From a virus (taxonomy: Duplodnaviria; Caudoviricetes), in the IMG/VR virus record IMGVR_UViG_3300028914_000062, positions 32,001-96,000 of that record: DNA of 64,000 bases, one strand, 5' to 3'. This document shows, piece after piece, positions 3,945 through 64,000 of the stretch. Numbering within the stretch: the stretch's first letter is position 1; each line of letters begins with the position of its first letter. The notes beneath the pieces are model-generated. The model ran no database searches. It had not been told where the DNA came from and was given only the letters and a program-made list of their open reading frames with translations. Both the position numbers and the translations under genes were made by a program.

Positions 3945-4937
3945 TTAAAAATCGAACTTGAATTTCTTCGGAGCATAGCTCGTAGTTGCCTGCGTGCTTA
4001 AGTAATGCTCCATAACCTTTTCATGATTTTCAATTCCTTCCCACTTATTCAAACACTCATAAGTGGAATTTTGCCTTGTCCATAAAGAGTGATATGGACA
4101 AAGTCTTTTACCTTCTTCGGGCTGATTGGGGTTGGTTGCACTAAACGGACACCAATAGCAAAGCGGAGAGGGGCTCGGAGTCCAGTCTTGCTTATCAATA
4201 TTAGCAAGATTTTTCTCAATTTTAGTCATTCCACGCTTTAACCAGCCTTTTGTGCCTGCACTTTGGCGCATATCACAGAATGGAAGGTCGTAATTAAATA
4301 AAATCATTGTTTCATCCGGATCGACCTACTATATATTGTATATAGACAAAGCGTAGACCACAAGCTGTAGTGGTGTCTTGGTATCCTTTTCATCGAATGG
4401 ACGGTCTCTCGTCTTAATATCCTCGATAAGATATTTATTTTCGTCTTTATACTTCCAAAGTCTATCAATGAAGCCTTTGAAGACGGTATTGGCGAAAGTA
4501 AACTCGAAATATTTTTCGACTGCGACCAGTTCAAGTTCAGGATGCTCCTTAGCAAAGTTCTCCAATCTATAAATGCCTTCGTTAAGGTAATTTGCACATT
4601 TGACTGCGTAGCAAGATCCGCGAGCGTCTCGCTCAAAATAGGGGGTGGGATATTTCTGCTTGAGTATGTCCAAACCGTAAATACCACCACTCTGATCAAA
4701 GGGGCTGGTCTTGGGAATATTAATATGCTGGAACTGATCTTTTAAGTTCTCATAATCAATCGGCTCTCCATTAATAATACACTGACCAATCTGCTCTTCG
4801 ATATGGTGAACGAGAGTACCCAGATCTATTGCAATCGACGGCTGATCGATAAAATGTTTATCCTCGTATTTAAGTTTGTAAGCCCAGGGACAGTTGACGT
4901 ACTGATTAAGACGAGAATAAGAAAACTTAGGTTTCAT
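3945..4937 (-). CDS. PD-(D/E)XK (RecB/AddB/Cas4-like) nuclease, 330 aa in code 15
   Basis: SYSRL..C.W, GTLVH, FKGFIDRL, IEDIKT, QLVVYA motifs and C-terminal CxxCP..C; two adjacent TAGs join ORFs 4329-4937 and 3945-4307 in frame. Confidence 0.88.
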
Positions 4938-4951
4938 AGGCCTCCATTCCC

Positions 4952-5308
4952 TTACTCTAATGTATACTTCCGATCAGAAAAACTATTATATATCCTTTTA
5001 ACTAACGCCTGCTCTTCGGGAAGAATTACCGGCACATATTTTAACAGTCCTGTCTTTTCGTCAGTTACCTTACGAACAATATGAAATACAAGATGATAAT
5101 CCGGAGGGTCGGGCTCTTCATCCTCGTCATATTCATAAGGGTCATTATCCTCAATAGGTTCATAGCTCGTAAGTATCAAGTAAGTCTAAAAATTAATATT
5201 CAGCGTCTCTTCGACGAAGAATTCCTGGGTGGTCCCATCCTCTAAGACAAACTCTAAATATTTGTCTTCGTCCGGACGATCCTCATAAACGTAATCATCT
5301 GGTCTCAA
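4952..5308 (-). CDS. DUF1292-like acidic small protein (one TAG)
   Basis: TTG start after AAAGGAAG; ORFs 5186-5476 and 4952-5179 join in frame via TAG; LEDGTTQEFFVEETL..TYLIL pattern. Confidence 0.6.
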
Positions 5309-6431
5309 AGAGAACACTTCCTTTCTTAACCCTCGCTGAAACGGTAACTGGATTGATACGGATCTTTTGTGCCAACAGTCTTTCCAGAGTTTCTTTTCCT
5401 CTATCGGCCGGACTATCTTTATACCCAACCAAACCATTGTAATCAAAGACCACATTCGTATCCATATACTTTGCAAAGGGCTGTATAATCTTTAATAATT
5501 TTGTTTCATAACTTTTAGTAAGTATCGAATTTCTATCCAAATCATTTTCTCTATCGAACGCAAGGGTAATCTTTTCCACTCCCAGACTTAATAGCAAATC
5601 AATTTGCTCGGTTGAGAGTGAAGAACCGCAACAAGCCACTGCGTAATTATTGCCGGGATAATATCCTTCACAAAGAAGAACACTTTTCTCCGCTTCAAAA
5701 ACAACGGCTTTCTTGAGGCGCCTAATTGTATCCTTGTTTTCATACAGTCCATAAAGATTGCGTCCAAGAGGGTGCTTATAGACGTTGCCTTCGACACAAA
5801 TCGGCATATACTTTCTGCCATTTTCGAGGTCATTTTCGTCAAAACTGCGTCCTCTTATTCCCACTAATCGACCGTTTATATCTCGATGAGGAATAATAAT
5901 CTTCCAATTCCCTGTGTCCACTCGAATACCAAACTTGAGCATCGCTTTGGCGGTTATACCTTCTTTAAGCCATTCATAAGGAACGGCTGGGCTACCAAAT
6001 AAGTCAAGTATGTTTTCTTGTATTGCCGGGAGTTGCTCAACGTTGGTTCGGGTTTTATCATTATCGAGTCTTTGAAGAATGTCCCAATCAGGTGTTAAAG
6101 TAACAACCTTTTCCTCAAAGCCGCTAAAAATATCAAGCCCAAAGTAGCGCTGAAGAGTCAGATATGATTGATAAAAATCACAATTACATACTTTAGAAAT
6201 GAGCCCATATATATCAAATGAGGCACTGCATTCAGTATAACAGTGAAACATCATTGACTCGGGGTAATAATATAACTTATAACTTCCTTCTCCAGGAGCA
6301 TTATGACATCTGGTCCTGAAGATCAGGTTGCCTTCGCCATCGGTTTTATAATCTCCGGCTTCAAGGCCCACAGATACAAATTGAGCAATTTGTTCAGTTG
6401 TAAGTTTCTGCTTCAATTCTGCCGGTGTCAT
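5295..6431 (-). CDS. dnaG: DNA primase (Zn-binding plus TOPRIM domains)
   Basis: CH..CYTEC zinc site, IIIPHRDINGRLVGIRGR, VVFEAEKS, ITLAFDRE, KDSPAD; TAG-free. Confidence 0.9.
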   Translation of the reverse strand: MTPAELKQKLTTEQIAQFVSVGLEAGDYKTDGEGNLIFRTRCHNAPGEGSYKLYYYPESMMFHCYTECSASFDIYGLISKVCNCDFYQSYLTLQRYFGLDIFSGFEEKVVTLTPDWDILQRLDNDKTRTNVEQLPAIQENILDLFGSPAVPYEWLKEGITAKAMLKFGIRVDTGNWKIIIPHRDINGRLVGIRGRSFDENDLENGRKYMPICVEGNVYKHPLGRNLYGLYENKDTIRRLKKAVVFEAEKSVLLCEGYYPGNNYAVACCGSSLSTEQIDLLLSLGVEKITLAFDRENDLDRNSILTKSYETKLLKIIQPFAKYMDTNVVFDYNGLVGYKDSPADRGKETLERLLAQKIRINPVTVSARVKKGSVLFETR

Positions 6432-6453
6432 AATTTACTCCTTTCTGATTAAT

Positions 6454-8010
6454 TTAGAATTCAAATCCGAAATTGTCAGCTTGATCGTAGATGACTTCTA
6501 CGTCAACACCTTTAATATCGGTTAAAATATTTCCTTCATTGTCGGTTACAAAGCAATCTGTAATACGACAAGTTGATCTATCAAAATATACATACAGACG
6601 AACGTTGGTGTGTTGACCTCGCCTGACTTTATATATGTGCAATACGTGAGTAGGTCTCAAAGTAAAACCCTTGCTCAAATAACTGTCGATAACATCCTTA
6701 TCTGCTTCTCGAACAGGCAACATAATTGTACCTATATCAACTTTATCGGAGATAGATTTTGCACCACGAAGCAACTGTTGGTCGGCCTCTTTAACCGTTT
6801 TCCAATCGCCACTTAACTGCGTCGCCGTCGAGATAAAAATCCCCAGCTGATTGCACAAATCTTTTAATCTGGTAGTAAACATAAGTAAGATCTGATCTTC
6901 ACGAAGGTTGCTAATGCGAGATTTCATCGCGCCTTCAGACATAATCTTGATCGTGGTCGCGAGGTAATCGTAATATACATAGTTCACACCATAGTTCTGC
7001 CAGTACTCTTTAATCAAATTCTCTATATCGTCCATATCATAATTGCTAATTTGCACAAAATATAGGGGAGAATTCTCAATGAGTTTGGCAGCTTTATCTA
7101 CTCGCTGCTCTTCATCATCATAATATTTACCATCCAAGATATGATGCTCTGGCACGCCGGAAACGGTTGCAAGATACATTGTCTGCACTTCATCGAGTTC
7201 GAGCTCAGTGGAAATATACAAAACAGGGTTGCACATATTGGTTGTAACCCATTTTCTCTTAATGGTATCATAATATTTTGGGACCGCAATACGAGCTGAC
7301 TCGCCAATCATTCTACGAGTTTTACCAACACCCTGTGCAGAAGATTCAAGATAAAGTTTCTTTAATCTCTGACCGCTATATAAAGAGGTTAAGATCGGTG
7401 AAGTTAAGGGCAAGCCAATACTTGGCTACTGTTTTAGTTTCTCTTTCAGCTCGCGTATATTATCACCAGCCATGGCGTTAACCACAGTATCAGTGCACTG
7501 AAAAGCGTGTTTGATTGTAGCAAGCTTCGTATCAAACTTATTTGCGATATCGTCGATTGTCATTTCGTCAAATCGGCGCTGCATTTCAGCTTCCTAATTC
7601 GGGTCCAGAAGAGTATCGTCATAGATGCTAGAAGTGTCAAAACCTTCTTTTTGCAAAGCATTTAGCATACTATGTTTCTTCATCAGATTATAATAATAAT
7701 CAAGCTTGGTCTCATCTGCCAGTTCAATCGCCTTAACAACATAATCGTCTCCGCGATTATCGGTATAAACTTTATACTGAACAGGATATTGTGTTAAAAA
7801 CTCGCGAACATCAGCGACTGTAATGGTCTGGAGACCCTTCATAGCCAGATATTCAACGGCTCCATACACAATTCTGTGAAACTGACCAACAAAATCATCT
7901 ATATTGAATTTATATTTATCACTACGCAAAAGTAGTGGATTTTTTAGTAAGCAAGCGATGACCTGCAACATGGCCATCGGGTTTTGCTTAGGTTGTATTG
8001 TATTGGCCAT
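6454..8010 (-). CDS. dnaB: Replicative DnaB-like helicase, 518 aa in code 15
   Basis: Walker A SAQGVGKTR, LYISTE, YDYL, TATQL, LRGAKSISDK, KVRRG; N-terminal ORF (from ATG 8010) and ATPase ORF 6454-7413 are in the same frame, linked by 2 TAGs. Confidence 0.9.
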
Positions 8011-8011
8011 T

Positions 8012-8476
8012 TCACAGATCCTCCATGTTGAATTTGGGTTTTCGCATTTCATTGACCGGATTTTTTATGGTAACGTGCGTAACATCGGTATTTATGGGTT
8101 TTTGCATATTGCGTTCCATCAGTGCCATACGTTCCATATAATATTGTCTTGCTTCGTCATACTTATATTTAATGACATACAGTCCGTACTCGGGAGTGGG
8201 CTTCATGCCCTCAATCTCGTAACAATAATAGAGCGTATACATCATTCCTGAATATTGTTTGCCTTCCTTGGCATACTTATCAATCATGATTTTCCACTCA
8301 GCGGGTACATCATTGAGTCCGAAAACCTTTTTGATGTACCCGCATAATTGACTGTAATCTTGCTCCTGAGCTCGGATCTGATCGGTCATAGCCTGGTAGC
8401 AATTGGGACAATATTTTTTTCCAGCAAGTGTTAATGGAGTTTCTGTGCGTTGCCCACACTTACTACAGGTTGCCAT
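8012..8476 (-). CDS. Zinc-finger protein (CxxC..CxxC), possible replication accessory factor
   Basis: MATCSKCG..YCPNCY; lies between the AAA ATPase and helicase genes; TAG-free. Confidence 0.6.
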   Translation of the reverse strand: MATCSKCGQRTETPLTLAGKKYCPNCYQAMTDQIRAQEQDYSQLCGYIKKVFGLNDVPAEWKIMIDKYAKEGKQYSGMMYTLYYCYEIEGMKPTPEYGLYVIKYKYDEARQYYMERMALMERNMQKPINTDVTHVTIKNPVNEMRKPKFNMEDL

Positions 8477-8483
8477 GGGTTAA

Positions 8484-11636: not shown

Positions 11637-14006
11637 TTAACCTTCGAGATACTTACGTATTTCTGAAACTCCTTTATATTTTTTGAAACTGTCTCCGGTT
11701 TTTACTATCAAAGTAGGGGCTTGCATAACCTCATATTGTTTGGCAATTTCCGGATGCTCAGTAGCATAAATCTTTGTATATTGTTTATTTGCCTTGTCCA
11801 ACATAGCACCAGCAACTTTACAGTTGGGACAAGTTGGGGTTGCAATTAGAATTAATTCAGTCTCTTCAATTTTACATAAATCACAAGACTCTTCTTTTAC
11901 ATTCGCTTCCTCAAAATGATGTTTTGCAAATGAAGAGCCAATATCATAAACTTTACGATCTTTAAATTCTTGTGACTTGCCGTCGTTCCAGTTCTGAACG
12001 GGACGGTAATAACCGGTTATGCGGCTGTAGACCTCGGTCTTTTCGCCGCACTCGGGACAGGTCTCCTGCTCGCCCGCGAGATATCCATGTGTTTTACACA
12101 CGGAGTAAGTGGGAGAAAGTGTATAATAAGGAAGTTTATAATTTTCTGCTATTTTACGAACAAGCGTCGCGGCAGCCTTCCAGTCGGGAAGTTTCTCGCC
12201 GAGGAAGGCGTGGAAGACGGTGCCCGAGGTGTAGAGGGTCTGAAGCTCGTCCTGGATATCGAGCGCCGAGAAAATGTCCTCGGTGTAGCCGACGGGCAGG
12301 TGAGACGAGTTGGTGTAGTAGGGGGTGTCGTCGCACGACCTAGCAGCAGTAATAATACCAGGGTAGGTTTCTACATCATGCTTGGCTAAACGATAGGCAG
12401 TGGATTCAGCCGGCGCCGCTTCGAGGTTGTAGAGGTCACCATACTATTCTTGATAGTCGGAAAGGCGCTCTCTCATATGATTAAGCACCTTAATCATAAA
12501 CTGCTACGCCTCTTTGGTTGTTAAATCTTTACGGATCCACTTAGCATTCAAGCAACATTCGTTACCACCAACAGTAGCGATTGTAGAGAAGTGATTATGA
12601 AAGTCACCCAAATATCTTTTTGTGTATGGGTATAAACCATTTTCCAAAAGCTGGGTAATAGTTTTGCGTTTAATATCAAGAGATCTCGCGGCAATGTCCA
12701 TCAAATGATCAAGACGCTTAAAGAAGTCCTCCTCATTTTCGGCTAGATATCCTATACGAGGAAGATTTATAGTTACTACGCCAACGGAACCAGTACTTTC
12801 ACCAGAACCGAAGTAACCACCGGACTTTTTACGAAGTTCTCTTAAATCCAGACGGAGCCTGCAGCACATGGAACGAACGTCGGATGGCTCCATATCCGAG
12901 TTGATATAATTACTAAAATATGGGGTGCCATATTTAGCCGTCATCTCAAAGAGAAGACGATTATTTTCAGTATCGGACCAGTCAAAATTTTTGGTAATAG
13001 AGTAAGTGGGTATGGGGTATTGAAAGCCGCGCCCATTAGCATCGCCCTCAATCATAATTTCAATGAAGGCTTTGTTGACCATATCCATTTCCTTTTGACA
13101 ATCCTTATATCTGAAATCCATCTCCTTACCGCCAACAATACAGTTAAGTTCGGCAAGGTCCGGAGGAACGACCCAGTCCAATGTAACATTAGTAAAAGGT
13201 GCTTGAGTACCCCAACGGCTCGGTGTATTCACACCATAAATAAACGACTGGATACATTGCTTAACTTGCTTATATGTTAAATTATCTGCCTTTACAAACG
13301 GAGCTAAATAAGTATCAAAGCTAGAAAAGGCCTGTGCTCCAGCCCACTCATTTTGCATGATACCAAGAAAGTTAACCATCTGATTGCAAAGGGTAGAAAG
13401 GTGGCTTGCAGGAGAGGAGGTAATTTTCCCAGGTACTCCACCAAGACCTTCCTAAATTAATTGTTTCAATGACCATCCGGCACAATAGCCAGAAAGCATA
13501 CTTAAGTCGTGAATATGCATCTCGGCATTTTTGTGAGCATCGGCGATCTCTTTATCGTAAACTTGATTAAGCCAATAATTAGCAGTAACTGCCCCAGAAT
13601 TAGAAAGGATCAATCCGCCAATGGAATAAGTAACGGTAGAGTTTTCTTTAACTCTCCAGTCGTTTACTTTTAAATAGTTATCCACTAATTTTTTATAATC
13701 AAGCATTGAATTATGTGCGTTTCTGAGTTTTTCTTGTTGTTCTCTATATAATATATATGCTTTGGCAACGTCTTCATAACCCGATTTAATCAAGACGGAT
13801 TCGACGCTGTCCTATATTTGCTCTACTGAAAGTTTACCATCCTAAATCTTGTTCTCAGCATCCGCCACGGCTTTAAGGGCCAAGAAATCGATAATATCTG
13901 CGTTGAAATCTCGATTACAGCCCTTAAAAGCCTTAGTGATAGCATTAATAATCTTAGTCAGGTCAAACTCCACGAGGCGTCCGTTGCGTTTGACTATTTT
14001 ATACAT
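11637..14006 (-). CDS. nrdD: Anaerobic (class III) ribonucleoside-triphosphate reductase with N-terminal ATP cone and C-terminal glutaredoxin-like domain, 789 aa in code 15
   Basis: IVKRNG ATP cone, HIHDL, QNEWAGAQA, RSMCCRL, YSRITGYYRP glycyl-radical loop, terminal CPNC; 5 TAGs, several at expected Gln sites (VEQI*DSVE, LKQLI*EGLGG, DYQE*YGD). Confidence 0.95.
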
Positions 14007-14010
14007 ACTT

Positions 14011-15222
14011 TCACTCTTTTTCTTCAATATTTTCTTCTGTGGTTTCAGGCGCATATTTAGTCAGAATTCTATTCATATACTGATCAAATGTTTCTGTCTC
14101 TATACCAAGGTTCTGACCCACCATGCGCTGGCGTTCTCTATGATAAATAATTTGTCTTTCAACTTCACTTGCGTTCATATAAAAACCAATATACTTGGTA
14201 TAGAATTTCGCTGTTGATTCAGCAAGCATATCAAGCCATTTCTGATCAATGCCTCTCCAATGATTGCACTGTGTCAGAAAATACAGGTAGAAAACAACCT
14301 GACATACAGTGCCAATAGACGAGTCAGCCACACGGCCGCCCTCTCTGACAAAAATTTCTTCGAGCATCAAGTCTATGGCTTTAACAAAAGCAGCCATACC
14401 ACTATACTGGTATTCTGCATCGTTCGATCTTGTAATCGAGGTTGGTGTCCATTTCCATACATACGTCAAACTATCTATATAAGTCTTCTTTTCCGTAAAG
14501 TGAAAAGCGAGACCATTAAAGAAAGAGTCTTCTTGAATTCTAAGCTCCGGATGAAATGAAATGCGGTTTTCATTTATATAAGACCTTTTATAGACCTTGC
14601 CGTGCATCCAAGTATTATCATTCTGATGAGTAATATAAGTATATCTCCCATCAGGAAGTAATTTTTCCTCCAACCAACTCGTGTTTACCAAATCAAACTT
14701 ATCTTCTTTGATGGCATCATAAAACAGAGAGAATACGCCAACCGAATGAATTACATCATCCGAGTCTGCAAACATAAGATAATCTCCCCTTGCATTATGA
14801 ATGCCAATCTGTCTTGCTACGCCGGGACCGCCATTGCTGAGCGCTCTAATAACCTTCGGTTTAATATGAGCGAACTTATTAAGATTCTCAGCAGTAAGTT
14901 CTGATTTTGTTGAAGCATCATCAACAATTATAACTTCTACCGTGCTCATGTCAACGCCAATCTGTCCGTCAATACTTGTAAGCAGGGGCTCCATCATGGC
15001 AAAGGGGGTGTTATAATAAGGAATTATAACGCTCAATCTGATATGGGGTTCCTGGGGCTTTGGAGCAGTCGCAAGATTAGCACAGGCTTCTACAGCTGTC
15101 TGAACATCAGCGCATGCATCTTGTGCGATTTCGGCAAATTTGTCGGCGGCTTTTTCCATTTCAACAGAGCTAACAAACTCACTCTGAGTCTCTTCAATTG
15201 TTTTTACCTTTTCTTCTTCCAC
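14011..15222 (-). CDS. Family 2 glycosyltransferase
   Basis: LSVIIPYYN, VIIVDDAS, NGGPGVARQIG, LMFADSDD, QEDSFFN; TAG-free. Confidence 0.88.
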   Translation of the reverse strand: MEEEKVKTIEETQSEFVSSVEMEKAADKFAEIAQDACADVQTAVEACANLATAPKPQEPHIRLSVIIPYYNTPFAMMEPLLTSIDGQIGVDMSTVEVIIVDDASTKSELTAENLNKFAHIKPKVIRALSNGGPGVARQIGIHNARGDYLMFADSDDVIHSVGVFSLFYDAIKEDKFDLVNTSWLEEKLLPDGRYTYITHQNDNTWMHGKVYKRSYINENRISFHPELRIQEDSFFNGLAFHFTEKKTYIDSLTYVWKWTPTSITRSNDAEYQYSGMAAFVKAIDLMLEEIFVREGGRVADSSIGTVCQVVFYLYFLTQCNHWRGIDQKWLDMLAESTAKFYTKYIGFYMNASEVERQIIYHRERQRMVGQNLGIETETFDQYMNRILTKYAPETTEENIEEKE

Positions 15223-15355: not shown

Positions 15356-16846
15356 TTATTTGATAATTGCGCCCTGCATAATTGCACGGGCTTCATCAAT
15401 TTTCGCCAGCGCTTCGGTCGTTGCGGCTTTCGCCTCATTCGTTTTCGCCAGCGCATTATTGAGTCCTTCCTTAAGGACGCCAATATTATCTTCAAGATTA
15501 TCATTCTTCTCCTGAAGTTCTTTGACCTTGGCATTAGCCTCATCAAGATGAGACTGAACCAACATCATCTACTTCTGAAGCAGAATGTTCGCTTGCTGAA
15601 GAGCCATTGCTCTATCAGTTTCAGCTTTCAGATCGGCCTGAGTCTCAGCAAGCTGGGCCTGGGTCTCTTCAAGCTCTGCTTTGGTATCATTATAAAGCTT
15701 CTCCCAATCCGGAGGATCAATGGGAAGAATGTCCTTCTCATCAAACCAATAAGCCAAAGTAATAGTATCACTATATTTAATTTCCACCTGATATGGATGA
15801 GGATAATTCATCGGGACCCTGGAAATAATAGTACCGGTTCCAGGAACATTCGGAGCCGTTTTAGCTGTAGCATCAAAATAAGTATAATACTTATCAGCAA
15901 TAACCTTAACCTGCTCACCAATCTCATACTCATTCTCAGGGAGTTCGGTATAAGGACCAACGAATTCTGCGTCGACCCAACCATCAACAGTGCCAAGAGG
16001 ATTGTCCTCAGTATGTTTTATATTGTAGGGATGCTTTTTACCTTTAGCAACCTATTTCACATAGGCTTTGCCGCCGATACAATCTTTCTGAGTGCCAGCA
16101 GTTGCATTAGTATAATGATAAATACCATCATAGCTGACAATATCGCCAACCTGGTAATAAGGATCAACGGGTTTGCTTGCGTCGATTATTTTCTGAACTT
16201 CGGATCTGAACCAATCCATATCCTTACCAAAACGCGCCAACCAGTGCGAAGGATCTTTGTGACTCGAAGCATAACCGGCAAGGTTGGCCTCATAGTGCGA
16301 AGTAACTTTAGATGAATCCCAACCAAAGAGCATACAAAGATAAGCAGTATAAGCAATGGCTTGTCCAAAAGCTTCGTCAAAATATTTCTGGCACTCAGGA
16401 TTCGAGGCGTCAAGAGAATCTTCGCAAATTTCGTACTACAAATAAGGGGTAGGATTATAATTATAAGACCCCTTTTCGCCAGCCCCACAACCCCAGCAAC
16501 AATAATTATATGGAAGTAAATGATAAACTTCCACGACACCGGCAGCATTTTTGCCAACCATAGCGTGAACGCATTTACTGCAAGTGGGTTTATTCCAGTG
16601 GTTATTATTTTTATTTTTCCCAAGATCCGCAATTATCGCATCATAGTTCGGATCACTTTTAGAAGGCTACACAAATCTCGCTAATTTAGTCTGATTGCAG
16701 CCAGTGGAGTGAACAAGAACACCAATCGGCTCCATCTAACTTTTAGAAGAGCGGTCGCCTTTATAATAGATTGTTTTGTTATTAATACCATAATCATAAC
16801 AATACGAATCATAGAAAATACAATCTTTTAAGATTAATTCTGCCAT
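15356..16846 (-). CDS. Endolysin: N-acetylmuramoyl-L-alanine amidase, two SH3-like repeats and a C-terminal coiled coil, 496 aa in code 15
   Basis: VLVHSTG, RFV*P, CVHAMVG, WGCG, YL*YEICED, TSHYEA, SHKDP amidase motifs; 5 TAGs; fragments at 16333, 15811 and 15568 share one frame. Confidence 0.88.
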
Positions 16847-17957: not shown

Positions 17958-20900
17958 TTATACGGGATTACGGGCAATATAACAGGACCCACCCTTTAAA
18001 ACTTTTGAATTATTGTCTAATGTTACTACATATATCGTAGCTCCTATCCCAGAGAAGCTAAGAGATACCTGTACTTCATTAGCCGCAATTAAACCAGAGG
18101 TTAGCCAAGTACTATCTAGACTACTTCCGATATCGGGCATTGTCGTGTTATATTTATATCTAACTTGAGTTGCTGTACCATAACCTGATAAACCTATTCT
18201 TGTTGAAGTGGTACTAGTAGAGCCCGCAACTTGCCACACCCCTAAACCAGAAGCCGGAACTGCAATAGTTCCAGACCCGCCTTTATAAGCCTTACCGTCT
18301 TGAAGTGTTACCACATAAAGAGTACCTCGACCATCTGGAGGATATGTCACGGAAAGTTCTCCGTTGCTTGTAATATGAACGCCGCTCCCTAGTGTCCACC
18401 CATCGTCTGTTAAAGTTGACGTTGTGGTTCCAACGAGAGGCATACTGTTAGCATTATATTTATAAGCAGCATCACAATTTGAAGCACCGGTAATTGCCAC
18501 CGTAACCGACAATGCGCTTACTGAGTCACGCAAAATAGCTAATCCTTGTGCCTAAGGAATAGTAATAGTACAAGACCCGCCTTTGGTTGCTTCCTAAGAA
18601 ATATTACGGGCCACGATCTATATCGTATTTCTAGACGAAGAAGGGAAATCAACTATAGCAATCACATTTGTATCAATAATTTGAGTCGAACATTGAGACC
18701 AGTCAGTGTCCGTAGTAATTGCGTCTCCTATATATGGGGGCAAATTCTAATATTTATACCATAAACTATCTGTTGTGGAAGCGTTCAAAACTTGTACTTC
18801 AGTTGTACTACTGCTTGCTGCAGAGCCCTATATGAGCTGTAATCCTGTTACATATTTTTTAATAGCCGATCCTCCGCCCCCAACAATAATTTTATCACTA
18901 TCGTTGTTTACTATAACCACATATACCATATCACCACTCTATGGCGGAAGGTCTATTTGAGCAGTAGCCAATCCCATAGATTTAATAAGCTCCGTATTAG
19001 ACCATGTACTATCAACATTGGTCCCTATATAAGGTGTAGAATTCGTATATTTATAATAAATTTTATTCACCACTTCAACCGAAGCATAGGGGGATAATTC
19101 TATTCTGACGTCACCATTTATCTGCCTAATATTTATATCGGTTGCCGGTATCGGATCAATTACTGTCGAAGTGTGTCCTCCTAGTTCCACTTGAGTTTTT
19201 GTACTATTCAATGTTACAACATATAAATATCGAGAGGAAGGAGGGGGAGATATACTAATTATAGATTCTCCGCTCGGCAGTAAAGAAGATGACTATGTTT
19301 GTTCCAGTGTCCAGCCACTAGGTGGCGCATCTCCAATATAAGGCATGACAGCATCACTGATATTAGCAGAATAATAATATGCAACCCAAACACTAGGCTC
19401 ACACGTTAAATGTACTTGAACCTTATTATTTTGAGTTCCGCTCTTAGTGACGGTCAAATCATTAGCTTTTAACTTAATAGTCGGAGGATTATTAGTGCCT
19501 AACTATACTACCATATTAGCGTTTACAGTAACAACCTAAACAGTCTAAATGCTTCCGGTGGGAAGATTAATTGTAATTTCTCCACCACTAACCGTAGCAG
19601 ATTGCCATCCACCACTTGTACTAATCGTTGCACCTTCACGAGGTCTGATACCTAGATAATTGTAATATACAAGGGGCCAAGAGTCACTTGTTGAGCTTGT
19701 TTTAGAAATAGTAAGATAAGCATGATTGTAATCCGAAGATACCCACGTTACCGTCAAGCCAGAAGCGTAAGGCGCCAGTGGAACAACTTGTGTAGAACCA
19801 CCATACTCTACCTTGTTTTCATCGTCCAGTGTTACTACATATAAATATTTAGTAGCATCTGGAGGGGATATAGAAATATACGTACCAGCAACACTTGAGG
19901 CAGTTTGTGTGAAATTCCAATCCGCAGATTGTAAATCACTTTTAGAGGTACCAGCATAAGGCATCACACCACTTGATAAAGTAGAATAATAATATCCTAC
20001 CATCGTACCAGGCTAACAGCCTAATAAAATAGTTACGGTTGTATCTGTGGTAACGCTCTGTTGTATTGTCATAACGGTCGGTAACAATTTAACTGTGCGC
20101 TAATTTATATTATTATCTGCTCCACTTGTAACTTCCAAATTAGCATTTGCTGTAACTAGCTAAATAAGATGAACTTCTCCTTCAGGAAGATCAATTACCG
20201 CCTCCCCATTACTTACTGTGGTAGATTTCCATCCACTAACATTCATTCCCACATATGGCTATGTACTTAAGTAATTATAATAGACAGTGGACAGAGATCC
20301 GCTCCCAGAATTTCTGGAAACCGTAAGATAAGCGTGAAGATAATCCGAAGAAATCCAAGTAACTGTTAAACCCGAAGCATATTGCGCAGGAATAATCTGA
20401 GCAAACCCACCCGTTTCTACATTATTTGACCTATCAAGAGTAACAACATATAAATATTTAGTAACAGTTGGCAGGTTATTGGTGATGTTAATTATGCTAC
20501 CATCTGGCACCGCCCCCGAAGATTGAGTCTGTGTGGATGTCCACCCAAGTAAATCAGCAGATGCTGTGCCAATATAGGGCATGTTTGTTATTGATTCTGT
20601 ATCAAACCATTGATATTTCACATTTACTGTTGAACCACAGTCAAATACTATTGTAATAGAAGTTGGCGTAGTAGCGCTTTGTGTTACGGTCAAATCATTA
20701 GCTTTTAACTTAATAGTCGGAGGATTATTAGTGCCTAACTATACTACCATATTAGCGTTTACAGTAACAACCTAAACAGTCTAAATGCTTCCGGTGGGAA
20801 GATTAATTGTAATTTCTCCACCACTAACCGTAGCAGATTGCCATCCACCACTTGTACTAATCGTTGCACCTTCACGAGGTCTGATACCTAGATAATTGTA

Positions 20901-22553
20901 ATATACAAGGGGCCAAGAGTCACTTGTTGAGCTTGTTTTAGAAATAGTAAGATAAGCATGATTGTAATCCGAAGATACCCACGTTACCGTCAAGCCAGAA
21001 GCGTAAGGCGCCAGTGGAACAACTTGTGTAGAACCACCATACTCTACCTTGTTTTCATCGTCCAGTGTTACTACATATAAATATTTAGTAGCATCTGGAG
21101 GGGATATAGAAATATACGTACCAGCAACACTTGAGGCAGTTTGTGTGAAATTCCAATCCGCAGATTGTAAATCACTTTTAGAGGTACCAGCATAAGGCAT
21201 CACACCACTTGATAAAGTAGAATAATAATATCCTACCATCGTACCAGGCTAACAGCCTAATAAAATAGTTACGGTTGTATCTGTGGTAACGCTCTGTTGT
21301 ATTGTCATAACGGTCGGTAACAATTTAACTGTGCGCTAATTTATATTATTATCTGCTCCACTTGTAACTTCCAAATTAGCATTTGCTGTAACTAGCTAAA
21401 TAAGATGAACTTCTCCTTCAGGAAGATCAATTACCGCCTCCCCATTACTTACTGTGGTAGATTTCCATCCACTAACATTCATTCCCACATATGGCTATGT
21501 ACTTAAGTAATTATAATAGACAGTGGACAGAGATCCGCTCCCAGAATTTCTGGAAACCGTAAGATAAGCGTGAAGATAATCCGAAGAAATCCAAGTAACT
21601 GTTAAACCCGAAGCATATTGCGCAGGAATAATCTGAGCAAACCCACCCGTTTCTACATTATTTGACCTATCAAGAGTAACAACATATAAATATTTAGTAA
21701 CAGTTGGCAGGTTATTGGTGATGTTAATTATGCTACCATCTGGCACCGCCCCCGAAGATTGAGTCTGTGTGGATGTCCACCCAAGTAAATCAGCAGATGC
21801 TGTGCCAATATAGGGCATGTTTGTTATTGATTCTGTATCAAACCATTGATATTTCACATTTACTGTTGAACCACAGTCAAATACTATTGTAATAGAAGTT
21901 GGCGTAGTAGCGCTTTGTGTTACAGTCAAATCTTTAGCTTTTAATTTAACGGTCGGAGGATTATCTGCGCCCTTTTGTACTTGCATACTTGCATTTACAG
22001 TTACCACTTGAACTGTATGAACCAAACCTGGAGGTAGCCCTATAATAGCCTATCCATCATTATCCACTGACGCATAAACCCACCCATCTGAAGTACTAAT
22101 CGTATCTCCTTCAAGAGGCGTTGTAACCGAATACTTATAATATACGAAAGTCACAACACCTCCACCAACTGGATTAACCGTTAAATACGCATAATTATAA
22201 TCCGAAGAGTTCCAAATGACTCGCAGTCCAGAAGCATAGGGTGAGGGGATCTACAGAACTTTTTGAGCATACTATTCTATTTTTAAAGTGTCTTCAACCT
22301 AAACACCTTTACTTATAATTGCAGCTCGTAAATTACTTTTCGCCAAAATTAATCGCGCAATATTATCTTCTGTTAAACTATTTTGGTCTAAAACTATTTC
22401 TGTAGTCGATGTATAACTTGAAGGAATCTCCAAAACTTTTTGAGCATATCCGTCTAATGTTATATCTCCGACTGAGACACCTTTAAATTCAATAGCAGTT
22501 TTTAAACTAGATTTCGCTGATATTATTCTTGTAATATTCTCTTCAATTGACAC
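17958..22553 (-). CDS. Large repetitive fibre/adhesin protein (1531 aa) with about 14 tandem ~100-aa beta-rich domains
   Basis: Seven ORF fragments in one frame linked by TAG; duplicated N-terminal I.R+I.AK..L+.AI..KGV fibre-attachment module; repeated YYxY..PYxG..GW..LYVVTLD..NKV..GG units. Confidence 0.8.
19450..21923. repeat. Perfect in-frame tandem duplication, 1236-bp period
   Basis: 19450-20687 matches 20686-21923; translated ORFs 19545/20781 and 20259/21495 are identical. Confidence 0.93.
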
Positions 22554-22568
22554 ACATATCACCTCTGC

Positions 22569-23033
22569 TTATATAGCGGATAATTGAGTATCAATTACAC
22601 CCAATATATTGTCAACATATTGTTTTACAGCCTTGGCAGTAGGATATTGAGCATCGGTAGGCTAAGACCCAATACTGGTTACTTTATTGACAAGCAGCTC
22701 TACTCCGGCATAGGATATTGAGCTATTAACAGCAATCGTACCGTCCGCATCCTCTTCTCCTCCAATTTTAAACACAAGAAAGCTCATAGTGATTTGATTT
22801 TTATATTTAAACAAAACACCCTAGTCGCCCTCTTTGAAGGAATACTTGGACCCGTTCCTAACATTAGGAATAATGGAGCCGTTCTCTCCCTCATCGGACA
22901 GCATGCGAATATTATAGGTTCCGTCGTTATTTTTGGTAACAATCTCACATAAAGCTGTTTGATCCCATTTTTTAAGAGTCTACTAATTTAGTGTTTTAAT
23001 TGCACTAACCAGTTCAAGATATCCTGTTTCCAT
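22569..23033 (-). CDS. Baseplate/spike-like small tail protein (154 aa; not in the ORF track)
   Basis: ATG overlaps the upstream TGA; CEIVTKNNDGTYNI OB-like segment and QYPTAKAVKQYVD fibre motif; several TAGs. Confidence 0.65.
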
Positions 23034-27782: not shown

Positions 27783-27818
27783 GAAAAACACTCCTTTCTT
27801 TTAAAATTTTAATATATA

Positions 27819-48445: not shown

Positions 48446-49828
48446 TTATGCCAATACCAAAGTGGTTATACCACAATGTTCTACTTTATTATTCTCGTCA
48501 AGTGTTACAACTACACAAGCATATCCCGGAGCTCCACCTGTAGCCGGCAGTAAAAAGCCACCCCCAGCAAGTGTTGCGCTATTCCAATTACCAGAAAGAG
48601 TGTCTCCTATAGCGGGAATTGCAACACTGACTCCTGTTTTATAATAAACAGTACCTTGAAGAACGGGCGAAATTGTAACTATCCAATCTTGTCCGTTTTT
48701 CCGATTAGTTACGGCTAAGTCACCTATAGACTCTCCAAATGTAGTTGTTAAATTACTATATCCGGTACTATAAGTTAAAGTATAAGCGGCAGCATTGCCA
48801 AAATGCACTATACCATTTATGCAATAAGTGGTAGTATAACCATATGGAGAATCCGAGGTAATTTGTGTATTAATTGCTGTCATTCCAGGCGGAGTGGGGT
48901 CTCCTCCGTTAGCATGAACTAATACTGCTACGGTTCCATTATCATAAATACCATATAAAGGAGCATTCGTGCCCTTCACATATCCTGTAGCAGCATCTAC
49001 GATAATTCCCACAAGCCCTTCATTAAGAGTTCGTCCCTTAACAGTTTCAATAACGCGGACTAATTGTCCATTAATCATATCGCATCCACTGAAGTCTGCA
49101 AGAGCAGTGCCCGACAATTCCATTGTTGTATTGGAACTCATATTAAACGTAAAATTTTGCGCTCCATTAAGCTTAAACCTAGGAATTTCAAACGTCAACG
49201 TACCGGCAAATTTCCCATTTGCAGTAGCACAAGCGTCCCCAGAAAAAATAGGAGCGGTAATAATCAAATACAACTCTTCTGGAATAATATTAGAAGTAAT
49301 AATAGCATCCCTAGCTTGCTCATCGGTAGCAAGATAACGAATGCAATATTCGTCATCATTGGTAGAACCAGGAATCGTTACTTCGGCCGATTCAACTACC
49401 AAGGTGTTCCACACCTCGGAACCGGATCTGGAATACCAAATGATCTTATCATTATCAGTATCGCAAGCAACTTGCAAAGCAAGGGGATTTTTACTCAGAA
49501 CAATTTTCCCAGTGATTTTATCGCCCACTTTAAGAGTTTCGCTCTGATATGCTGTTATATCCGCACCTGTCTAAAACATAGCCCCAAGTTGCGCCTCCAG
49601 ATAAGACTCTTTCCAGAAGATATCTGTTAATGTAATTTCTACATTAGGATCATGATAAAAATTCGTAACAATGGGAGCACCTGTGCCTCCACGAAGATCG
49701 TCTTTAGTTGTAGAAATATTAATAGAAGAATCTGTTAATGTTTTACACACAAAAGCAAGTTGACGACCAACGGCCGTATTACGAAAAGCTTCTGCGCTAC
49801 CTACTGATCCAAGAAAATATTTGGACAT
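48446..49828 (-). CDS. Major tail tube protein paralog 2 with extra C-terminal beta domain, 460 aa
   Basis: MSKYFLGSVGSAEAF..KTLTDSSINIST..LRGGTG, FEIPRFKLNG; one TAG at 49571. Confidence 0.8.
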
Positions 49829-49843
49829 ATGTTACCCCCTCCT

Positions 49844-50011
49844 TTACTTGTTATTATTTTGATACTGCGGGCATTTCTGCCCGCAGTTATGTTCTTTGAA
49901 ACACCGATCTTTAAAGCAGTATTTTTGACAAATACACACTTCTTGAGATAATGTGCATGTATAGCCTTGGCCTGGAATATAATGGCTATATACACAATTG
50001 TGATTACTCAT
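49844..50011 (-). CDS. Small Cys-rich protein (55 aa, 8 Cys; below the ORF-track cutoff)
   Basis: MSNHNCVYSHYIPGQGYTCTLSQEVCICQKYCFKDRCFKEHNCGQKCPQYQNNNK fills the gap between the tube genes. Confidence 0.6.
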   Translation of the reverse strand: MSNHNCVYSHYIPGQGYTCTLSQEVCICQKYCFKDRCFKEHNCGQKCPQYQNNNK

Positions 50012-50014
50012 AAA

Positions 50015-51142
50015 TTATGATGCGCTAACAGTTGTTACAGAGCAGGCGAAAGAGGGCGAGCCCTGATCGCCGTTCGGATAAAAAGTAAAGGCCTGAGCGC
50101 CCGCGGTGGAGCTAAAGGTAACGGTACCATTAGATTTATCATAACTTGCTCCAGAGGGAATACTTATGTAATTTGGATTGGCGTTAGCACTAGCTGTGCT
50201 ATTTGCCCACTTTAAGAGAGCTCTTTCACCATTTTCATATATGGTATAAATGTTTGCCGTAGCAGCAGGTGCATAACCATTACCCTTATCGATCATAATT
50301 TTCAAAATACCGACGTTTGGAGTTCTACCATCAATACTTTCGATAATACGAACAAGCTGACCATTAATCATATCACAGCCACTAAAGTCGGCAAGAGCAG
50401 TACCAGAAAGTTCCATAGTAGTATTAGAACTCATGTTAAACGAGAAGTTCTGGGCACCATTGAGCTTAAATCTCGGGATCTCAAAAGTAAGAGAGCCGGC
50501 GAGTTTACCATTAGAGGTAGAACAAGAATCGCCAAAGAATATAGGAGTTGTGATAATCAGGAAAAGTTCAGCAGGAATTATATTAGAAGTAATAGTTGCC
50601 TCTCTCGCTTGCTCATCGGTAGCAAGATAACGAACGCAATAGGTACCAGATTCGGGAACTGTTACGGTTTGCGACAATTCGGTAACCTAAGCAGTATGCC
50701 ATGCGTCGGAACCCTCTTTTGAAAACCAAACCGTGGCTTTTTCTTCTGTATCACAAGCAACAGGCAATACAAGGGGCTGTTTAGTTAAGGTAATCTGATA
50801 ATGACTGTCAACCTGCGAAGCCGTTAAAGCATGAGGCTCGGTAAAATAATTCGCAATTTCAGCACCGGCCTGGAACATAGCACCAAGCTGAGATTCAAGA
50901 TAAGACTCTTTCCAGAATATATCGGTAAGAGTTATTTCAACGTTAGGATCGTGATAGAAATTGGTTACTATAGGAGCACCAGTGCCGCCACGAAGATCGT
51001 CTTTGGTCGTCGAGATGTTAATCGAAGAGTCGGTCAGGGTTTTGCAAACAAAAGCTAACTCCTTACGAGTTGTGCCATCGCCATTGTCTATGGTTCTGAA
51101 AGCTTCGGCACTACCGACCGAACCAAGAAAATATTTGGACAT
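50015..51142 (-). CDS. Major tail tube protein paralog 1, 375 aa
   Basis: Highly similar to 48446-49828 over the tube core; one TAG at 50687. Confidence 0.8.
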
Positions 51143-55760: not shown

Positions 55761-56858
55761 TTAGCCACCGATAGTGAGGGTACCGAATTTCGAACCAACT
55801 ATGGCCGAAATACCGACCTTCATCTTGATGGAGATGCCGTAGGTACGGTCATTGGTCTCTTCGGGGATGTTCTCGATGGTTACCGAGTCGCCTTCGAAGA
55901 CAACCTTGACAGGACGATACGAATCAGCAGCTATGAAGTAAATCTTGTTGTCAGCTATCGAGAGGGTAGCCGAGGTGTTGGTGGTACCAGGAACAAGTAC
56001 GTTATCAACAGGGATAAGAGGAGTGTTGAGGTACTTATCGAGGAAGCCTTCCTTAGCTATCTCGGAGCCAAGACCATACTGGAGACCCTGGACAGTCGGG
56101 TAGACGTTGCCAAGAGCACCAAGGGTGCCTATCGCATAGACAGCGGCGCCGCCATTGGCAGCACGAACTCTCTCACGAAGAGCGGTCCAGTTGGCGTTGC
56201 TGAGACCAGAAGCAGAATAACCAGCGCCGACTTCAGAGACAGCAGAGGTCATCGCGGCAATTATCTTAAGGAAGATGTAGCCTTCGAACGAACGGCCAGC
56301 TCTAAGAGCGAAATCGCCCCAGTCAAACACGCCAGCAGCAACAGGATACCAGTCGACAGAAGTGGCTATCTCGATGGTACCGCAGTTGACGGTATACTCA
56401 TCATCGTAAATGGGCTGGAGGACACCACGATTGATACCTTCGGCAACCTCATTAACTTTGAAGAGCTCATTGGACTTTACTATGAAACGAGCAGTGTCGC
56501 CCCAGCCAACCTGGACGACTTCAGCAAGGAACTCCGCATATCTCGCCGAGGTGACCTCGGGAGCAACGGCGTTGATTATCTGAGCTATAACAGCGTTGAA
56601 GTTCTCACGGACAGCCTGAGATCTGACTACCATGGGATTCTTGAAGAGTGCGGCGCCCTGGGTCTCAAACATAGACTCATAACGGGTGTCGGCGACCGAG
56701 AATTTAACGACAGCTTCGTTTATTTCTCTCATCTTGTCGGCATAATCGGGAACGACGATGCCCTTTCTCTTATCGCGAGCGGCGATAATGACGGAATCAA
56801 CGATGGCGTTGAAGCCTTCATCGTTGGATCTTTTATATTCAAACGATTCCATAATCAT
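55761..56858 (-). CDS. Major capsid protein
   Basis: 365 aa, follows the scaffold and decoration genes, strongly optimised codons; AEVVQVGWGDT..F, YAIGTLGAL, VKVVFEGD motifs; TAG-free. Confidence 0.85.
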   Translation of the reverse strand: MIMESFEYKRSNDEGFNAIVDSVIIAARDKRKGIVVPDYADKMREINEAVVKFSVADTRYESMFETQGAALFKNPMVVRSQAVRENFNAVIAQIINAVAPEVTSARYAEFLAEVVQVGWGDTARFIVKSNELFKVNEVAEGINRGVLQPIYDDEYTVNCGTIEIATSVDWYPVAAGVFDWGDFALRAGRSFEGYIFLKIIAAMTSAVSEVGAGYSASGLSNANWTALRERVRAANGGAAVYAIGTLGALGNVYPTVQGLQYGLGSEIAKEGFLDKYLNTPLIPVDNVLVPGTTNTSATLSIADNKIYFIAADSYRPVKVVFEGDSVTIENIPEETNDRTYGISIKMKVGISAIVGSKFGTLTIGG

Positions 56859-60125: not shown

Positions 60126-60139
60126 ACCAGTCACGCTCC

Positions 60140-60637: not shown

Positions 60638-60657
60638 AAAACTTCCCTCCTTCTCAA

Positions 60658-62436
60658 TTAAATCATTTTATTTTCAGAGACGTTGTTTCCGGCATCTATA
60701 CTAGCTGCCGTAGCATCATTCTCCACATCGTTCTCATCCATCTTAGGACGACCAACGGGATTTTTCTCTTCGTCATTTGCGTCAACCAGGGCCACTTTTT
60801 CCAATTTATCATATATATCCATAGAATTAATATAAGCATCTATGGCTTCTGCGTCTCTCACAGTGAGATCTTCCGAAGAAAGCAGTTTTGGCATGAGGAA
60901 TTTATCTCCGCTCATAACCGCCTCTTTCAAGAATTTCTTCTCATTTTCCATTGTATAAATTCCGCCCCAAATGCGGATTTTCCAATGGTATTTAAGACCC
61001 AGAAGTTTATTGATAATTGTATTTAAAGCGTCTTCAAATTGACGCGTGACAAAGTCGTATTGAGATTCGGCCAAGAGTTGTGCACCCTTGACCTGTGCAA
61101 TGGAGGGTTTGTCGGACGCAATTATAATACCACCTTCACCAGATGTGGTGATAAAGTTTTTAATTGCGCTCGAAACCATATCGTTACTATTTACCGTATT
61201 CGGCAAAGACAATAATTGAATATTCTTTAACGGAGCGAAGAACGCTTCGGTGTTTGTAGAAGTCATCGCATTAAATGCGTCCTGTAAGCCCTTAAGGATC
61301 TCAGGATTAATCTTTGTTTGAGTTTTACCAGGCATTGCATTATCAACATATTCCGCCTCACCAGTAAGAATGGCGGTAAGCGGAGTGCTTGCAATAAGAC
61401 CTGCCAATGCTGAATAATCTGTAAGTTCTTGCAAATTCAAGAATAAAGATGCTGTATCCGGCACAACCCACACATGAGAGTTATCACTGCAGAAAGTATA
61501 ACAGATCTCTTGCGGCAGCTGTACCCAGAACATATAGGTACGATCCTTGGATTCCCAATTCGTTGCCATTTCTTTACCTTTATATGTAGATTTAAATTTC
61601 GTAGCAGCACTTGGAATAAACTTCATCGCCCCTTCAGAAGTCCTCGATATAACACCGGTTTCCAACATCTATTCCCAAACATTCTAGATATATTCAGAAT
61701 ATTGTTTGGGACTAAAGGCCGGGTTCATGAAGATCATCATATTAAAAGAAGCAATATATCCATGTTGACCAATACCGGTAAGTTTTACATATTGAGTAGG
61801 AAGCTTTTCAAGAGTTACATAATGCACTTCATCATCGTTCATTGCATAACGTACAATATAAGTACTTTTGCCATCTCTTTTAACTTCCAGAGCTTTCTGT
61901 TTCAAAGTTCTAGCAACGCCCAAAACTTCAAGCCATTTATCAACAAGTGCGTCTTCTCTCTTAAATTCTTTGCTCTTATATTCCTCAGGCTCCAACAGTT
62001 CTGGTACTTTATAATATTTATACGCCGGAATGTCACAAGCCTCGCGCAAAATCTTATAATAAAGATATTGAGTTGCAGAAAGCGCCCACGAAGAGCTCCT
62101 TAATGTTAACTCAGAAGATTGAGGGGCCTGAAGCGCCTTAACAATCTCTTCTTTGGATCGAGTCGCCGGCAAAGTATTAATCATCTTAAGTCGTTCATTT
62201 TGTAAGAATGGATTAAGACTATTTAACGTACCAAGCACAGGCAGCGCCACTTTCGAAGTGCCATCTGCATATTGACTCATCTACTGATAAATCTTTTCGT
62301 ATCCTTCTTTTAAATCCGCAAGAGTTACTTTTTGATTCTCATTACTCATCTAAAGAGTATCGGAAGATTCATTCGCTATCGGTTCCTTCTTCTTCGGTCT
62401 CCCCCTCGACTTCTTCGTCTCCTTTTCCTTCTCCAT
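60658..62436 (-). CDS. Portal protein, 592 aa in code 15
   Basis: Follows the terminase; KRDGK, KLPTQYVKLTG..FNM, C-terminal VGRPK; fragments 62280 and 61668 in frame via TAG. Confidence 0.8.
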
Positions 62437-62827
62437 CGGCTTCGGCTCCCCCTTTCTTTATAATGTTAGATGCGTTTTGGAGAATTGCAAGAACAGTATC
62501 GATTTTAGCTTTCATTTCTTGCAATTTATCCTATTGTTCTTTTTCTATTTTTATGGTATCAATAGCGTTGTAGTAATCGTGTACCCATTGCCACTCGGAA
62601 TCATAATCTTTGGGCTCCGGTCTCTCGATCTCCTGAATATAAAAATCTTTAATACCATATTTATTTAACTCTCGCGAAAGGCGAGATTTATTCACTTTTG
62701 GAAATAACGACTTAAAGAAAATAACGTCGGCGCCACAATATAAATCACCGATTTCATTTAAGCCATCTACAACTTCATCTAGATTCTTAACTTTATTTAT
62801 GTTAAAATGCACTTTACAGCAAATCAC
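62369..62827 (-). CDS. Hypothetical protein between terminase and portal
   Basis: ORF 62531-62827 extended through TAG to TGA at 62369. Confidence 0.55.
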
Positions 62828-62839
62828 TGAGCACCAACC

Positions 62840-64000
62840 TCACTTTCTTGAAAACGGATTTGTTCTATCTGCAAAAGGATTAACAATCTGCTTATGTTTG
62901 GGAGTTATGTTAAAAATATAATCATAATCTGTATCGACAGTTGTGTCGCCATAGATTTCCTCATTACGAAGAGTCATAATGTGCCACGCAAACAGTGCTA
63001 AACAATAAGCGCGGTCATCGTGCATTTTACGAATCACTGTATTAGGCAAGTGATACAATACCTAACCGGTATTCGCACTCTTTTCCTTTACGAAGTTAAC
63101 AACCTCTTCTTTCATAAGGTCCATTTCGACATAGGCAAATATTTCTTCTTGAGTTAATGTCGTAAGTTTTTCCTCAAGCTATAACTCGTGATTCTTTGGT
63201 AGGCAACAGGGGAAAATAATTAAATCCTATTGCACCAATTCACATAACCAAGCAAACATTTGTTGACGCCACTTTTTCGGCTCAACCATATGGCAACAGT
63301 CCACAGCGTGAGGATATTTTTCCAATTGCCTCCCCGCATCCGGATCGGTTGAATCAATAACTCCTCTATGCAACTATCCATTATGATCAACCCAGTCTTC
63401 CCAGAGACGTTCACAATATGTGCGTCCACCTCCACCAGCACCAATATCAACCATAAGCTAACAATTCTAATATTCGGGATTATTACCATTATAGTTAACA
63501 ATCATATCTCGAATGATCTATAATTGCTCATTGGTCCTCAAGGGCTTTTTGGTCCCATCTGGTAAACGATCAATTAAGTTTTGGCCATTTACTATGCGGC
63601 CCATCCATCCCTTTTGTGGATCTCTATATACCTCTCCTACCAGTGCAAACGAATTATCCATCTGCGCCGCAGGGTCGAAACAAATAGCATAGTGTCTGGG
63701 AATAGAACGATCGGCGATCGGTCGATATTCAAATTCTGGCAGATAATCACGCTCATTACGAGTAATCTCATAACGCTTGATCATGGCATCAGTTCCGCCA
63801 GTTTTGTCGAAAATGTTGTAATACTCCCTCATCGCTTTTGCCTCATTTTCTCTCATCGCCTGATCAATTTTATCCTACGTAAGCAACGGAGGATAAGCCT
63901 AACCATTAAGTGTCGGATGAAGAGGAATTTCACAGTTTATGTCTACACAGAAATAACCAGGAATTCCTTGTATCATCTTAATAGCACACTCTTTATAGCG
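62840..64000 (-). CDS. Terminase large subunit, C-terminal nuclease half (partial)
   Basis: AMREYYNIF, AICFDPAAQMDNS, IGAGGGG, HDDRAYCLAL RNase H-like motifs; fragments in frame via TAG. Confidence 0.88.

Follow-up and report, generated by a model that had tools for sequence, protein, structure and literature searches.

A 134,923-bp virus contig in IMG/VR is the subject of this analysis, in particular its bases 32001-96000, a stretch of 64,000 bases referred to as the window. The contig is linear, without terminal repeats, with a CheckV completeness of ~81% and a G+C content of 40.5%. The genes of the window are found nearly all on the minus strand and include those for an anaerobic-type ribonucleotide reductase (NrdD), an endolysin, tail and fibre proteins, a tape measure, a portal and a large terminase (TerL). 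Many of these genes are interrupted in frame by the triplet TAG. As outlined below, TAG very probably encodes glutamine in this phage, as in genetic code 15, a reading to which we assign a probability of about 0.92.

Open reading frames and the TAG triplet

With the standard code (table 11), the window from ~3.9 kb onward appears as a run of short open reading frames (ORFs). When TAG is taken as a sense codon, these short minus-strand ORFs fuse, and ~211 in-frame TAGs are then found in 25 genes of the window. The gain was measured for the whole contig as the greedy non-overlapping ORF cover, with table 11 compared to TAG sense. This cover increases from 0.770 to 0.912, i.e., coding density is gained under code 15 as the original prediction had anticipated, and the mean ORF length increases from 180 to 314 amino acids (aa). 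The gain is smaller when TGA or TAA is made a sense codon (cover of 0.807 and 0.852, respectively), as expected of spurious ORFs.

The interrupting triplet is always the same. In the late block (43.6-108.4 kb of the genome, i.e., 11.6-76 kb in window coordinates), the coding frame of 20,637 codons holds 239 TAGs and neither TAA nor TGA internally; the two off-frames hold 301 and 287 TAG, 483 and 1003 TAA, and 323 and 921 TGA. These counts bear out the claim of the original prediction that ORF breaks in recognisable genes are all TAG. Its companion claim, that every gene end is TAA or TGA, holds for all recognisable genes, which terminate in TAA (92) or TGA (39), but is unprovable for every gene because a TAG close to the end of ~6 early, small ORFs is possibly still a stop. 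No frameshifts are found in the TAG-interrupted genes, and the read-through ORFs match their homologs end to end. The joined NrdD comprises 805 aa (homologs 787-808), the joined RNA polymerase 932 aa (homologs 883-1096, mostly 920-1000) and the joined TerL 624 aa (623-658 in the best full-length matches).

The base on the 3' side of TAG is distributed as that after CAA/CAG, and the TAGs are evenly spread along the genes. The combination of an unremarkable neighbouring base and an even spread fits with general decoding rather than site-specific readthrough. This observation, together with the number of TAGs per gene, bears on an alternative explanation in which TAG is still a stop in the host and is passed in part by a near-cognate tRNA or a host suppressor, with no phage suppressor and at low yield. 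Such a scenario would fit with the lack of a canonical tRNA-CUA in the contig in searches with ARAGORN and Rfam, the sole candidate being one with an odd T-loop that would have to be spliced, and with the finding that suppressor tRNAs were detected in no more than 40% of the genomes with recoded TAG (Borges et al., 10.1101/2021.08.26.457843). However, the 84 TAGs in the essential tape-measure gene and the 14-25 in other essential virion genes would be impassable by inefficient readthrough, TAG is found without a special downstream context, and recoded relatives carry a tRNA-CUA to which a split gene in the contig is homologous. We therefore consider partial readthrough very unlikely.

Table 1. 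Features of the contig, in window coordinates unless genome coordinates are indicated. TAG numbers are in-frame counts.
Feature	Coordinates	Strand	Length	TAGs	Basis or remark
DNA polymerase III alpha	1..3840	-	1318 aa in whole genome		Pfam DNA_pol3_alpha, PHP, HHH_6, finger domains
PD-(D/E)XK nuclease	3945..4937	-	330 aa	2	Pfam PF12705, E 5.3e-19, aa 5-267
DnaB-like helicase	6454..8052	-	532 aa	2 (N-terminal)	Pfam DnaB_C, E 7e-13; joined only with TAG as sense
NrdD with thioredoxin-like domain	11637..14054	-	805 aa	5	Pfam NRDD, E 2.1e-190
Motif LI*EGLGG	13437-13460				NrdD
Motif VEQI*D	13809-13826				NrdD
Endolysin/amidase	15356..16846	-	496 aa	5	PHROG 15001 endolysin, E 4.7e-29; PHROG 1794 amidase, E 1.4e-14
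Motif YL*YEICED	16418-16444				endolysin/amidase ORF
Motif RFV*P	16664-16678				endolysin/amidase ORF
Tail-fibre-like repeat protein	17958..22562	-	1534 aa	25	~412-aa repeats; open only with TAG as sense
Motif TV-TAG-VVTVNA	19518-19544 and 20754-20780				fibre repeats
Motif TV-CAA-VVTVNA	21990-22016				fibre repeat
Tail protein	23033..24310	-	425 aa	2	PHROG 1887, E 5.5e-31
Two large tail-module proteins	24333..32507	-	1152 aa, 1562 aa	25, 19	open only with TAG as sense
Tape measure	32571..45308	-	4245 aa	84	Pfam PhageMin_Tail, E 7.9e-27; 0 internal TAA/TGA
Tyrosine recombinase/integrase-family protein	45978..46961	-	327 aa	4	Pfam Phage_integrase, E 5.9e-17, and SAM-like N-terminal domains
Two paralogous virion structural proteins	48446..51142	-	460 aa, 375 aa	1 each	PHROG 2729
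Motif GAMF-TAG-TG	49565-49585 (TAG at 49571-49573)				structural paralog
Motif GAMF-CAG-AG	50864-50884				structural paralog
Head-module protein	55761..56858	-	365 aa	0	PHROG 4088 (function unknown), E 3.6e-41
Portal	60658..62436	-	592 aa	4	PHROG 2739, E 9.9e-19
Large terminase (TerL)	62840..64714	-	624 aa	14	PHROG 2, E 1.4e-15
YonO-type RNA polymerase	69925-72723 (L003:9925-12723), beyond window end	+	932 aa	9	Pfam PF05183
Candidate split tRNA(CUA)	genome 21564-21850 (L002:3564-3850)	-			two tRNA halves
tRNA-like gene	genome 18292-18382 (L001:18292-18382)	-	91 nt		Rfam tRNA, 45.8 bits
c-di-GMP-I-GGC riboswitch aptamer	genome 17198-17275 (L001)	-			sub-threshold, 45.9 bits (gathering 59), E 6e-9

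The amino acid at TAG

The original prediction derived glutamine from internal paralogs. All motifs that it quoted were found, at or adjoining their reported positions (Table 1), but they are insufficient alone because the residues aligned with TAG are mixed. In the two structural paralogs, which are 67% identical over 317 aa, one TAG is found opposite Q (CAG) and the other opposite V, and in the fibre repeat copies TAG is found opposite TAG, T, Q, G, E, P, H and R. When internal paralogs in general were compared by BLAST as chunks of 200 aa, the partners of TAG were X (23), T (12), Q (10), G (7), E (6), P (6), H (6) and others, and this approach was set aside as insufficient. Solved structures of NrdD were too distant to serve as a reference, with Q or E/N/A/K at the TAG sites.

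External homologs support glutamine far more strongly than do the paralogs. In an alignment of NrdD with 120 homologs at 76-98% identity, taken from thousands, Q occupies three of the five TAG columns, in 120/120, 107/120 and 120/120 homologs, and the remaining two columns are variable (E/K/Q and E/Q/K/M). The homolog P0001, which is 98% identical, has Q at all five sites, and viral NrdD loci have CAA or CAG at the three conserved ones. In the RNA polymerase, Q is the majority residue at five of the nine TAG columns (107, 83, 120 and 70 of 120 homologs, among others). In TerL, for which 482 homologs were found, the 14 TAGs fall on variable polar columns (Q, E, K, P, S).

The 28 TAG sites of NrdD, the YonO-like RNA polymerase and TerL were analyzed by a Codetta-like log-likelihood test, which gave +30.1 nats for Q, +2.1 for E and -3.9 for K, i.e., Q is 28 nats above the next residue. 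As a control, the same test decoded 60/60 testable sense codons correctly. In a second test the contig proteins were compared by tblastn to 75 related IMG/VR loci, which yielded 51 TAG sites with 2005 aligned residues. Here, Q was the commonest residue opposite TAG (21%), and the partner codons were CAA (302), GAA (240) and CAG (110) in order of frequency. A mere mutational-neighbour effect is ruled out by the lead of CAA over CAG, since two changes separate CAA from TAG. The substitution profile of TAG is closest to that of CAA (Jensen-Shannon divergence, JSD, 0.048), followed by GAA (0.062), and the in-frame TAGs of the relatives are most often located opposite a TAG (31) or CAA (27) of the contig.

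The second rank of GAA, as well as the terminase and several RNA-polymerase and NrdD sites where homologs most often have E, K, P, H or S, would be compatible with a TAG that is a sense codon for another polar residue (Glu or Lys) or for pyrrolysine. However, Gln is the residue of every invariant homolog column (two in NrdD and one in the RNA polymerase, each with 120/120), the likelihood of Q exceeds that of K by 34 nats, in addition to the difference to E given above, and the suppressor tRNAs of the relatives and the candidate in the contig carry Gln acceptor features (see below). An amino acid other than glutamine is thus highly improbable, as judged with no search aimed at pyl genes. Finally, the possibility that the TAGs reflect damage, i.e., that the genes are pseudogenes of a decaying prophage or products of an assembly or sequencing artefact, could explain why the late genes are heavily fragmented under code 11 but is in effect refuted by TAG being the only interrupting triplet, along with the intact frames, the full-length read-through ORFs and the same pattern in TAG-recoded relatives, including the 31 TAG-to-TAG sites.

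A candidate suppressor tRNA and the distribution of TAG

A scan of the contig for a canonical tRNA-CUA using ARAGORN (default and relaxed), the Rfam tRNA model and a search by hand for CUA loops gave no match. Only tRNA-Pro, -Met, -Asn and -Thr are identified by ARAGORN, to which Rfam adds a 91-nt tRNA-like gene and a weak match. A plausible candidate for an amber suppressor is located 10.15-10.44 kb upstream of the window start, where two tRNA halves are separated by a 209-nt insert between U35 and A36, i.e., a split tRNA(CUA) with a group-I-like intron, for which splicing and function are predicted. The insert starts after a U and ends in a G. With the insert removed, the putative tRNA has a 6-bp acceptor stem, A1.C72, G73 and an anticodon arm with GUUGG/CCAAC as its stem and CUCUAAC as its loop. 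Spliced in silico, the cloverleaf is at -24.8 kcal/mol, compared to a minimum free energy of -25.2. An exact-pattern IMG/VR scan with its odd T-arm gave one chance match only, in unrelated high-GC DNA.

The last 15 nt of the candidate are identical to those of the suppressor in the recoded relative G002. In this relative and in another, G001, a tRNA-CUA with an unpaired 1:72 and G73 is found beside a tRNA-Gln(UUG). The unpaired 1:72, G2-C71, G3-C70 and G73 are common to the suppressors of the relatives and the candidate. In Escherichia coli these are the Gln acceptor features that define identity for glutaminyl-tRNA synthetase (GlnRS).

The 91-nt tRNA-like gene has perfect acceptor, D and T arms, while ~39 nt without a clear anticodon replace the anticodon arm. 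It was rejected as a suppressor because it has no CUA anticodon. A similar 91-nt match is found in G001, at 111705-111795. Just downstream of the tRNA cluster, there is a match to a c-di-GMP-I-GGC riboswitch aptamer, at a score below the gathering threshold (Table 1).

The contig harbors 272 in-frame TAGs, of which 239 fall in the late block, at a density of 11.6 per 1000 codons or 28% of the Gln-type codons; in the flanks of this block the densities are 2.4 and 0.4 per 1000 codons. The TAG-rich genes are those for the tape measure, fibres, tail proteins, terminase, portal, endolysin, NrdD, tyrosine recombinase and RNA polymerase. TAG-free genes encode DNA polymerase III alpha, a RecD-like helicase, a NAD-dependent ligase, an AAA_24 ATPase, a glycosyltransferase and the 365-aa head-module protein. 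The polymerase III alpha gene, with 0 TAG and 49 CAA/CAG, exemplifies the standard-code replication genes. The standard code miscalls about one-quarter of the genome as fragments, and code 15 makes whole the phage RNA polymerase, NrdD, endolysin, tape measure, fibres, terminase and portal.

Several of the individual genes deserve comment. The amidase with in-frame TAGs of the original prediction is the endolysin/amidase ORF, in which RFV*P and YL*YEICED are both located; the ORF at 3945-4937 is not the amidase but encodes a PD-(D/E)XK nuclease, where two adjacent TAGs (aa 203-204) lie inside the Pfam domain match. The two TAGs of a PhoH-like protein likewise lie inside its domain match. NrdD is ~78% identical to bacterial proteins and has TAG at invariant-Gln positions, which points to Gln codons having changed to TAG inside the phage; the gene looks host-derived, with its five TAGs gained since. 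The C-terminal thioredoxin/glutaredoxin-like fusion of NrdD is common to the 77-79%-identical bacterial (Clostridia) proteins from metagenome-assembled genomes (MAGs).

In the tail module, no match to Pfam or PHROG was found for the 1152- and 1562-aa proteins, which have tblastn matches in the syntenic relative G001. The tape measure is exceptionally long, and the Pfam tape-measure domain covers only aa 2666-2884. The tyrosine recombinase gene is located directly downstream of that of the tape measure, inside the tail module, and has four TAGs, in contrast to Garnet and Topaz prophages, whose integrases are reported to be TAG-free. By position only, the 365-aa head-module protein may be the capsid protein; a scan of IMG/VR with this protein alone gave no match. 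The large terminase crosses the window end at 64000, with 9 of its 14 TAGs within the window.

A number of observations weigh against reading TAG as glutamine with the aid of a phage suppressor. At variable columns, e.g., in TerL, E, K, P and S outnumber Q opposite TAG, and the support for TAG is 1.07 nats per site, compared to 1.36 for CAA and 2.04 for CAG. The insert of the candidate tRNA matches Rfam Intron_gpI at 26.7 bits (E 4.5e-4), under the gathering score of 50, its T-loop is a non-canonical 8 nt, and even the spliced form is missed by ARAGORN. A release-factor gene (PF00472) was not found in the contig, and about 19% of the genome is unseen at the estimated completeness. In addition, the PD-(D/E)XK nuclease, DnaB-like helicase and PhoH-like protein genes also have TAGs.

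From this distribution we infer that recoding may gate the late programme at the level of translation, a role already proposed for other gut phages with recoding. The host would read the standard code and most replication genes, being TAG-free, would be translatable at once. A phage tRNA(CUA) with Gln-type acceptor features would then switch TAG to Gln and thereby enable the phage to make its RNA polymerase, virion proteins and endolysin. Because TAGs are also found outside the late genes, such a gate would be graded rather than clean. A more elaborate and rather doubtful possibility is a two-step cascade, where splicing of the suppressor tRNA would allow translation of the YonO-type polymerase, which in turn would transcribe the virion and lysis genes rich in TAG. 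Polymerase recoding recurs in TAG- and TGA-recoded relatives and would, in such a cascade, be a selected control point rather than drift.

Relatives and known recoded phages

Of the two relatives mentioned above, both TAG-recoded, G001 (133 kb, 96% complete) is syntenic with the contig and G002 (149.6 kb) is complete, with terminal repeats. Most of the 75 IMG/VR relatives look standard-code, and TAG-recoded lineages among them are L020/L050/L058, L041 and L065-L086. Two others, L019 and L033, have in-frame TGA, most often opposite TGG of the contig (21 cases), which means that TGA is recoded to Trp in members of the same phage family. In the recoded relatives the polymerase gene always has recoded stops (1-10 TAG or 6-7 TGA). 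The lineage thus holds standard-code, TAG- and TGA-recoded members side by side, which makes it suited for studies of code change. A megablast search with 19 kb of the contig against GenBank phages gave no match.

The original prediction described the phage as SPbeta-like. The RNA polymerase matches Pfam RdRP (PF05183, E 2.8e-10) and PHROG 8308 (E 2.7e-90), and has 743 database homologs, mostly on contigs up to ~150 kb. When compared by tblastn to yonO of SPbeta, it is 27% identical across 53% of the query (E 8e-25). Matches are also found in Bacillus phage BUCT082 and in Enterocloster, Thomasclavelia and Clostridium c-st phages, and the nearer cultivated relatives are BUCT082 (29% over 98%) and the Enterocloster phages (28-29%). 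A TerL search retrieves other Bacillus phages, not SPbeta. The YonO-type polymerase supports the term SPbeta-like in a broad sense, i.e., as a distant kinship that rests on the polymerase comparison; DNA polymerase III alpha and a very long tape measure are also found in the window. A Clostridia host, which had been proposed as well, is plausible and is suggested by the nearest named NrdD homologs (77-79% identical), which are found in Clostridia, Ruminococcaceae and Eubacteriales MAGs.

Late-gene recoding of TAG to Gln has been described in several gut phage clades (Borges et al., bioRxiv 10.1101/2021.08.26.457843; later Nat Microbiol 2022). As in those phages, in-frame TAGs accumulate in genes for structure and lysis and vary among those for replication, a standard-code host is inferred, close relatives have code 11 or are TAG- or TGA-recoded, and a suppressor tRNA is not always detectable. 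The Agate clade (10.1101/2021.08.26.457843), which includes standard, TGA-recoded and TAG-recoded members, agrees with the present phage in this mix of codes as well as in genome size (~127 kb for the TGA-recoded lineage and possibly 154 +/- 27 kb as the clade mean, where the list in the preprint is ambiguous). The contig differs from that account in its polymerase gene with nine TAGs and its intron-split candidate suppressor, neither of which was found in the paper.

A second comparison is offered by phAss-1 of the proposed genus Phassvirus (Babkin et al. 2023, PMC10607447; OQ749652), a human-gut phage with a ~136-kb siphovirus-type genome, where TAG is recoded to Gln in 41 ORFs including those of TerL, portal, tape measure and fibre. 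The two phages are alike in genome size, a very long tape measure, TAG-to-Gln recoding and the lack of a dedicated aminoacyl-tRNA synthetase. In contrast, phAss-1 has 36 tRNAs with three intact tRNA-CUA, compared to five or six tRNA genes in the contig, none of them for an intact tRNA-CUA. A kinship between the two was rejected, as TerL and the RNA polymerase of the contig have no match in OQ749652.

In crAss-like phages code 15 has been proven by proteomics (Peters et al. 2022, PMC9523058), i.e., the reassignment was shown by mass spectrometry, whereas that in the present phage is read from sequence alone. The code-15 crAss-like and Lak phages resemble it in the change of TAG to Gln in late genes and in having standard-code hosts. 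They belong to another lineage with Bacteroidota hosts, in contrast to the probable Clostridia host considered here. The NCBI taxonomy contains a "Caudoviricetes code 15 clade".

With SPbeta the phage shares a ~130-kb genome, a single-subunit RNA polymerase of the YonO family and a long tape measure. The similarity is distant and SPbeta uses the standard code. The contig represents a distantly SPbeta-related gut phage in which most of the recoding affects late genes, lysis genes and the RNA-polymerase gene. The recoded gut phages thereby gain a lineage with a YonO-type polymerase that probably infects Clostridia. The principle of TAG-to-Gln recoding in gut phages is already established, and the phage of this contig is a further, well-supported case.

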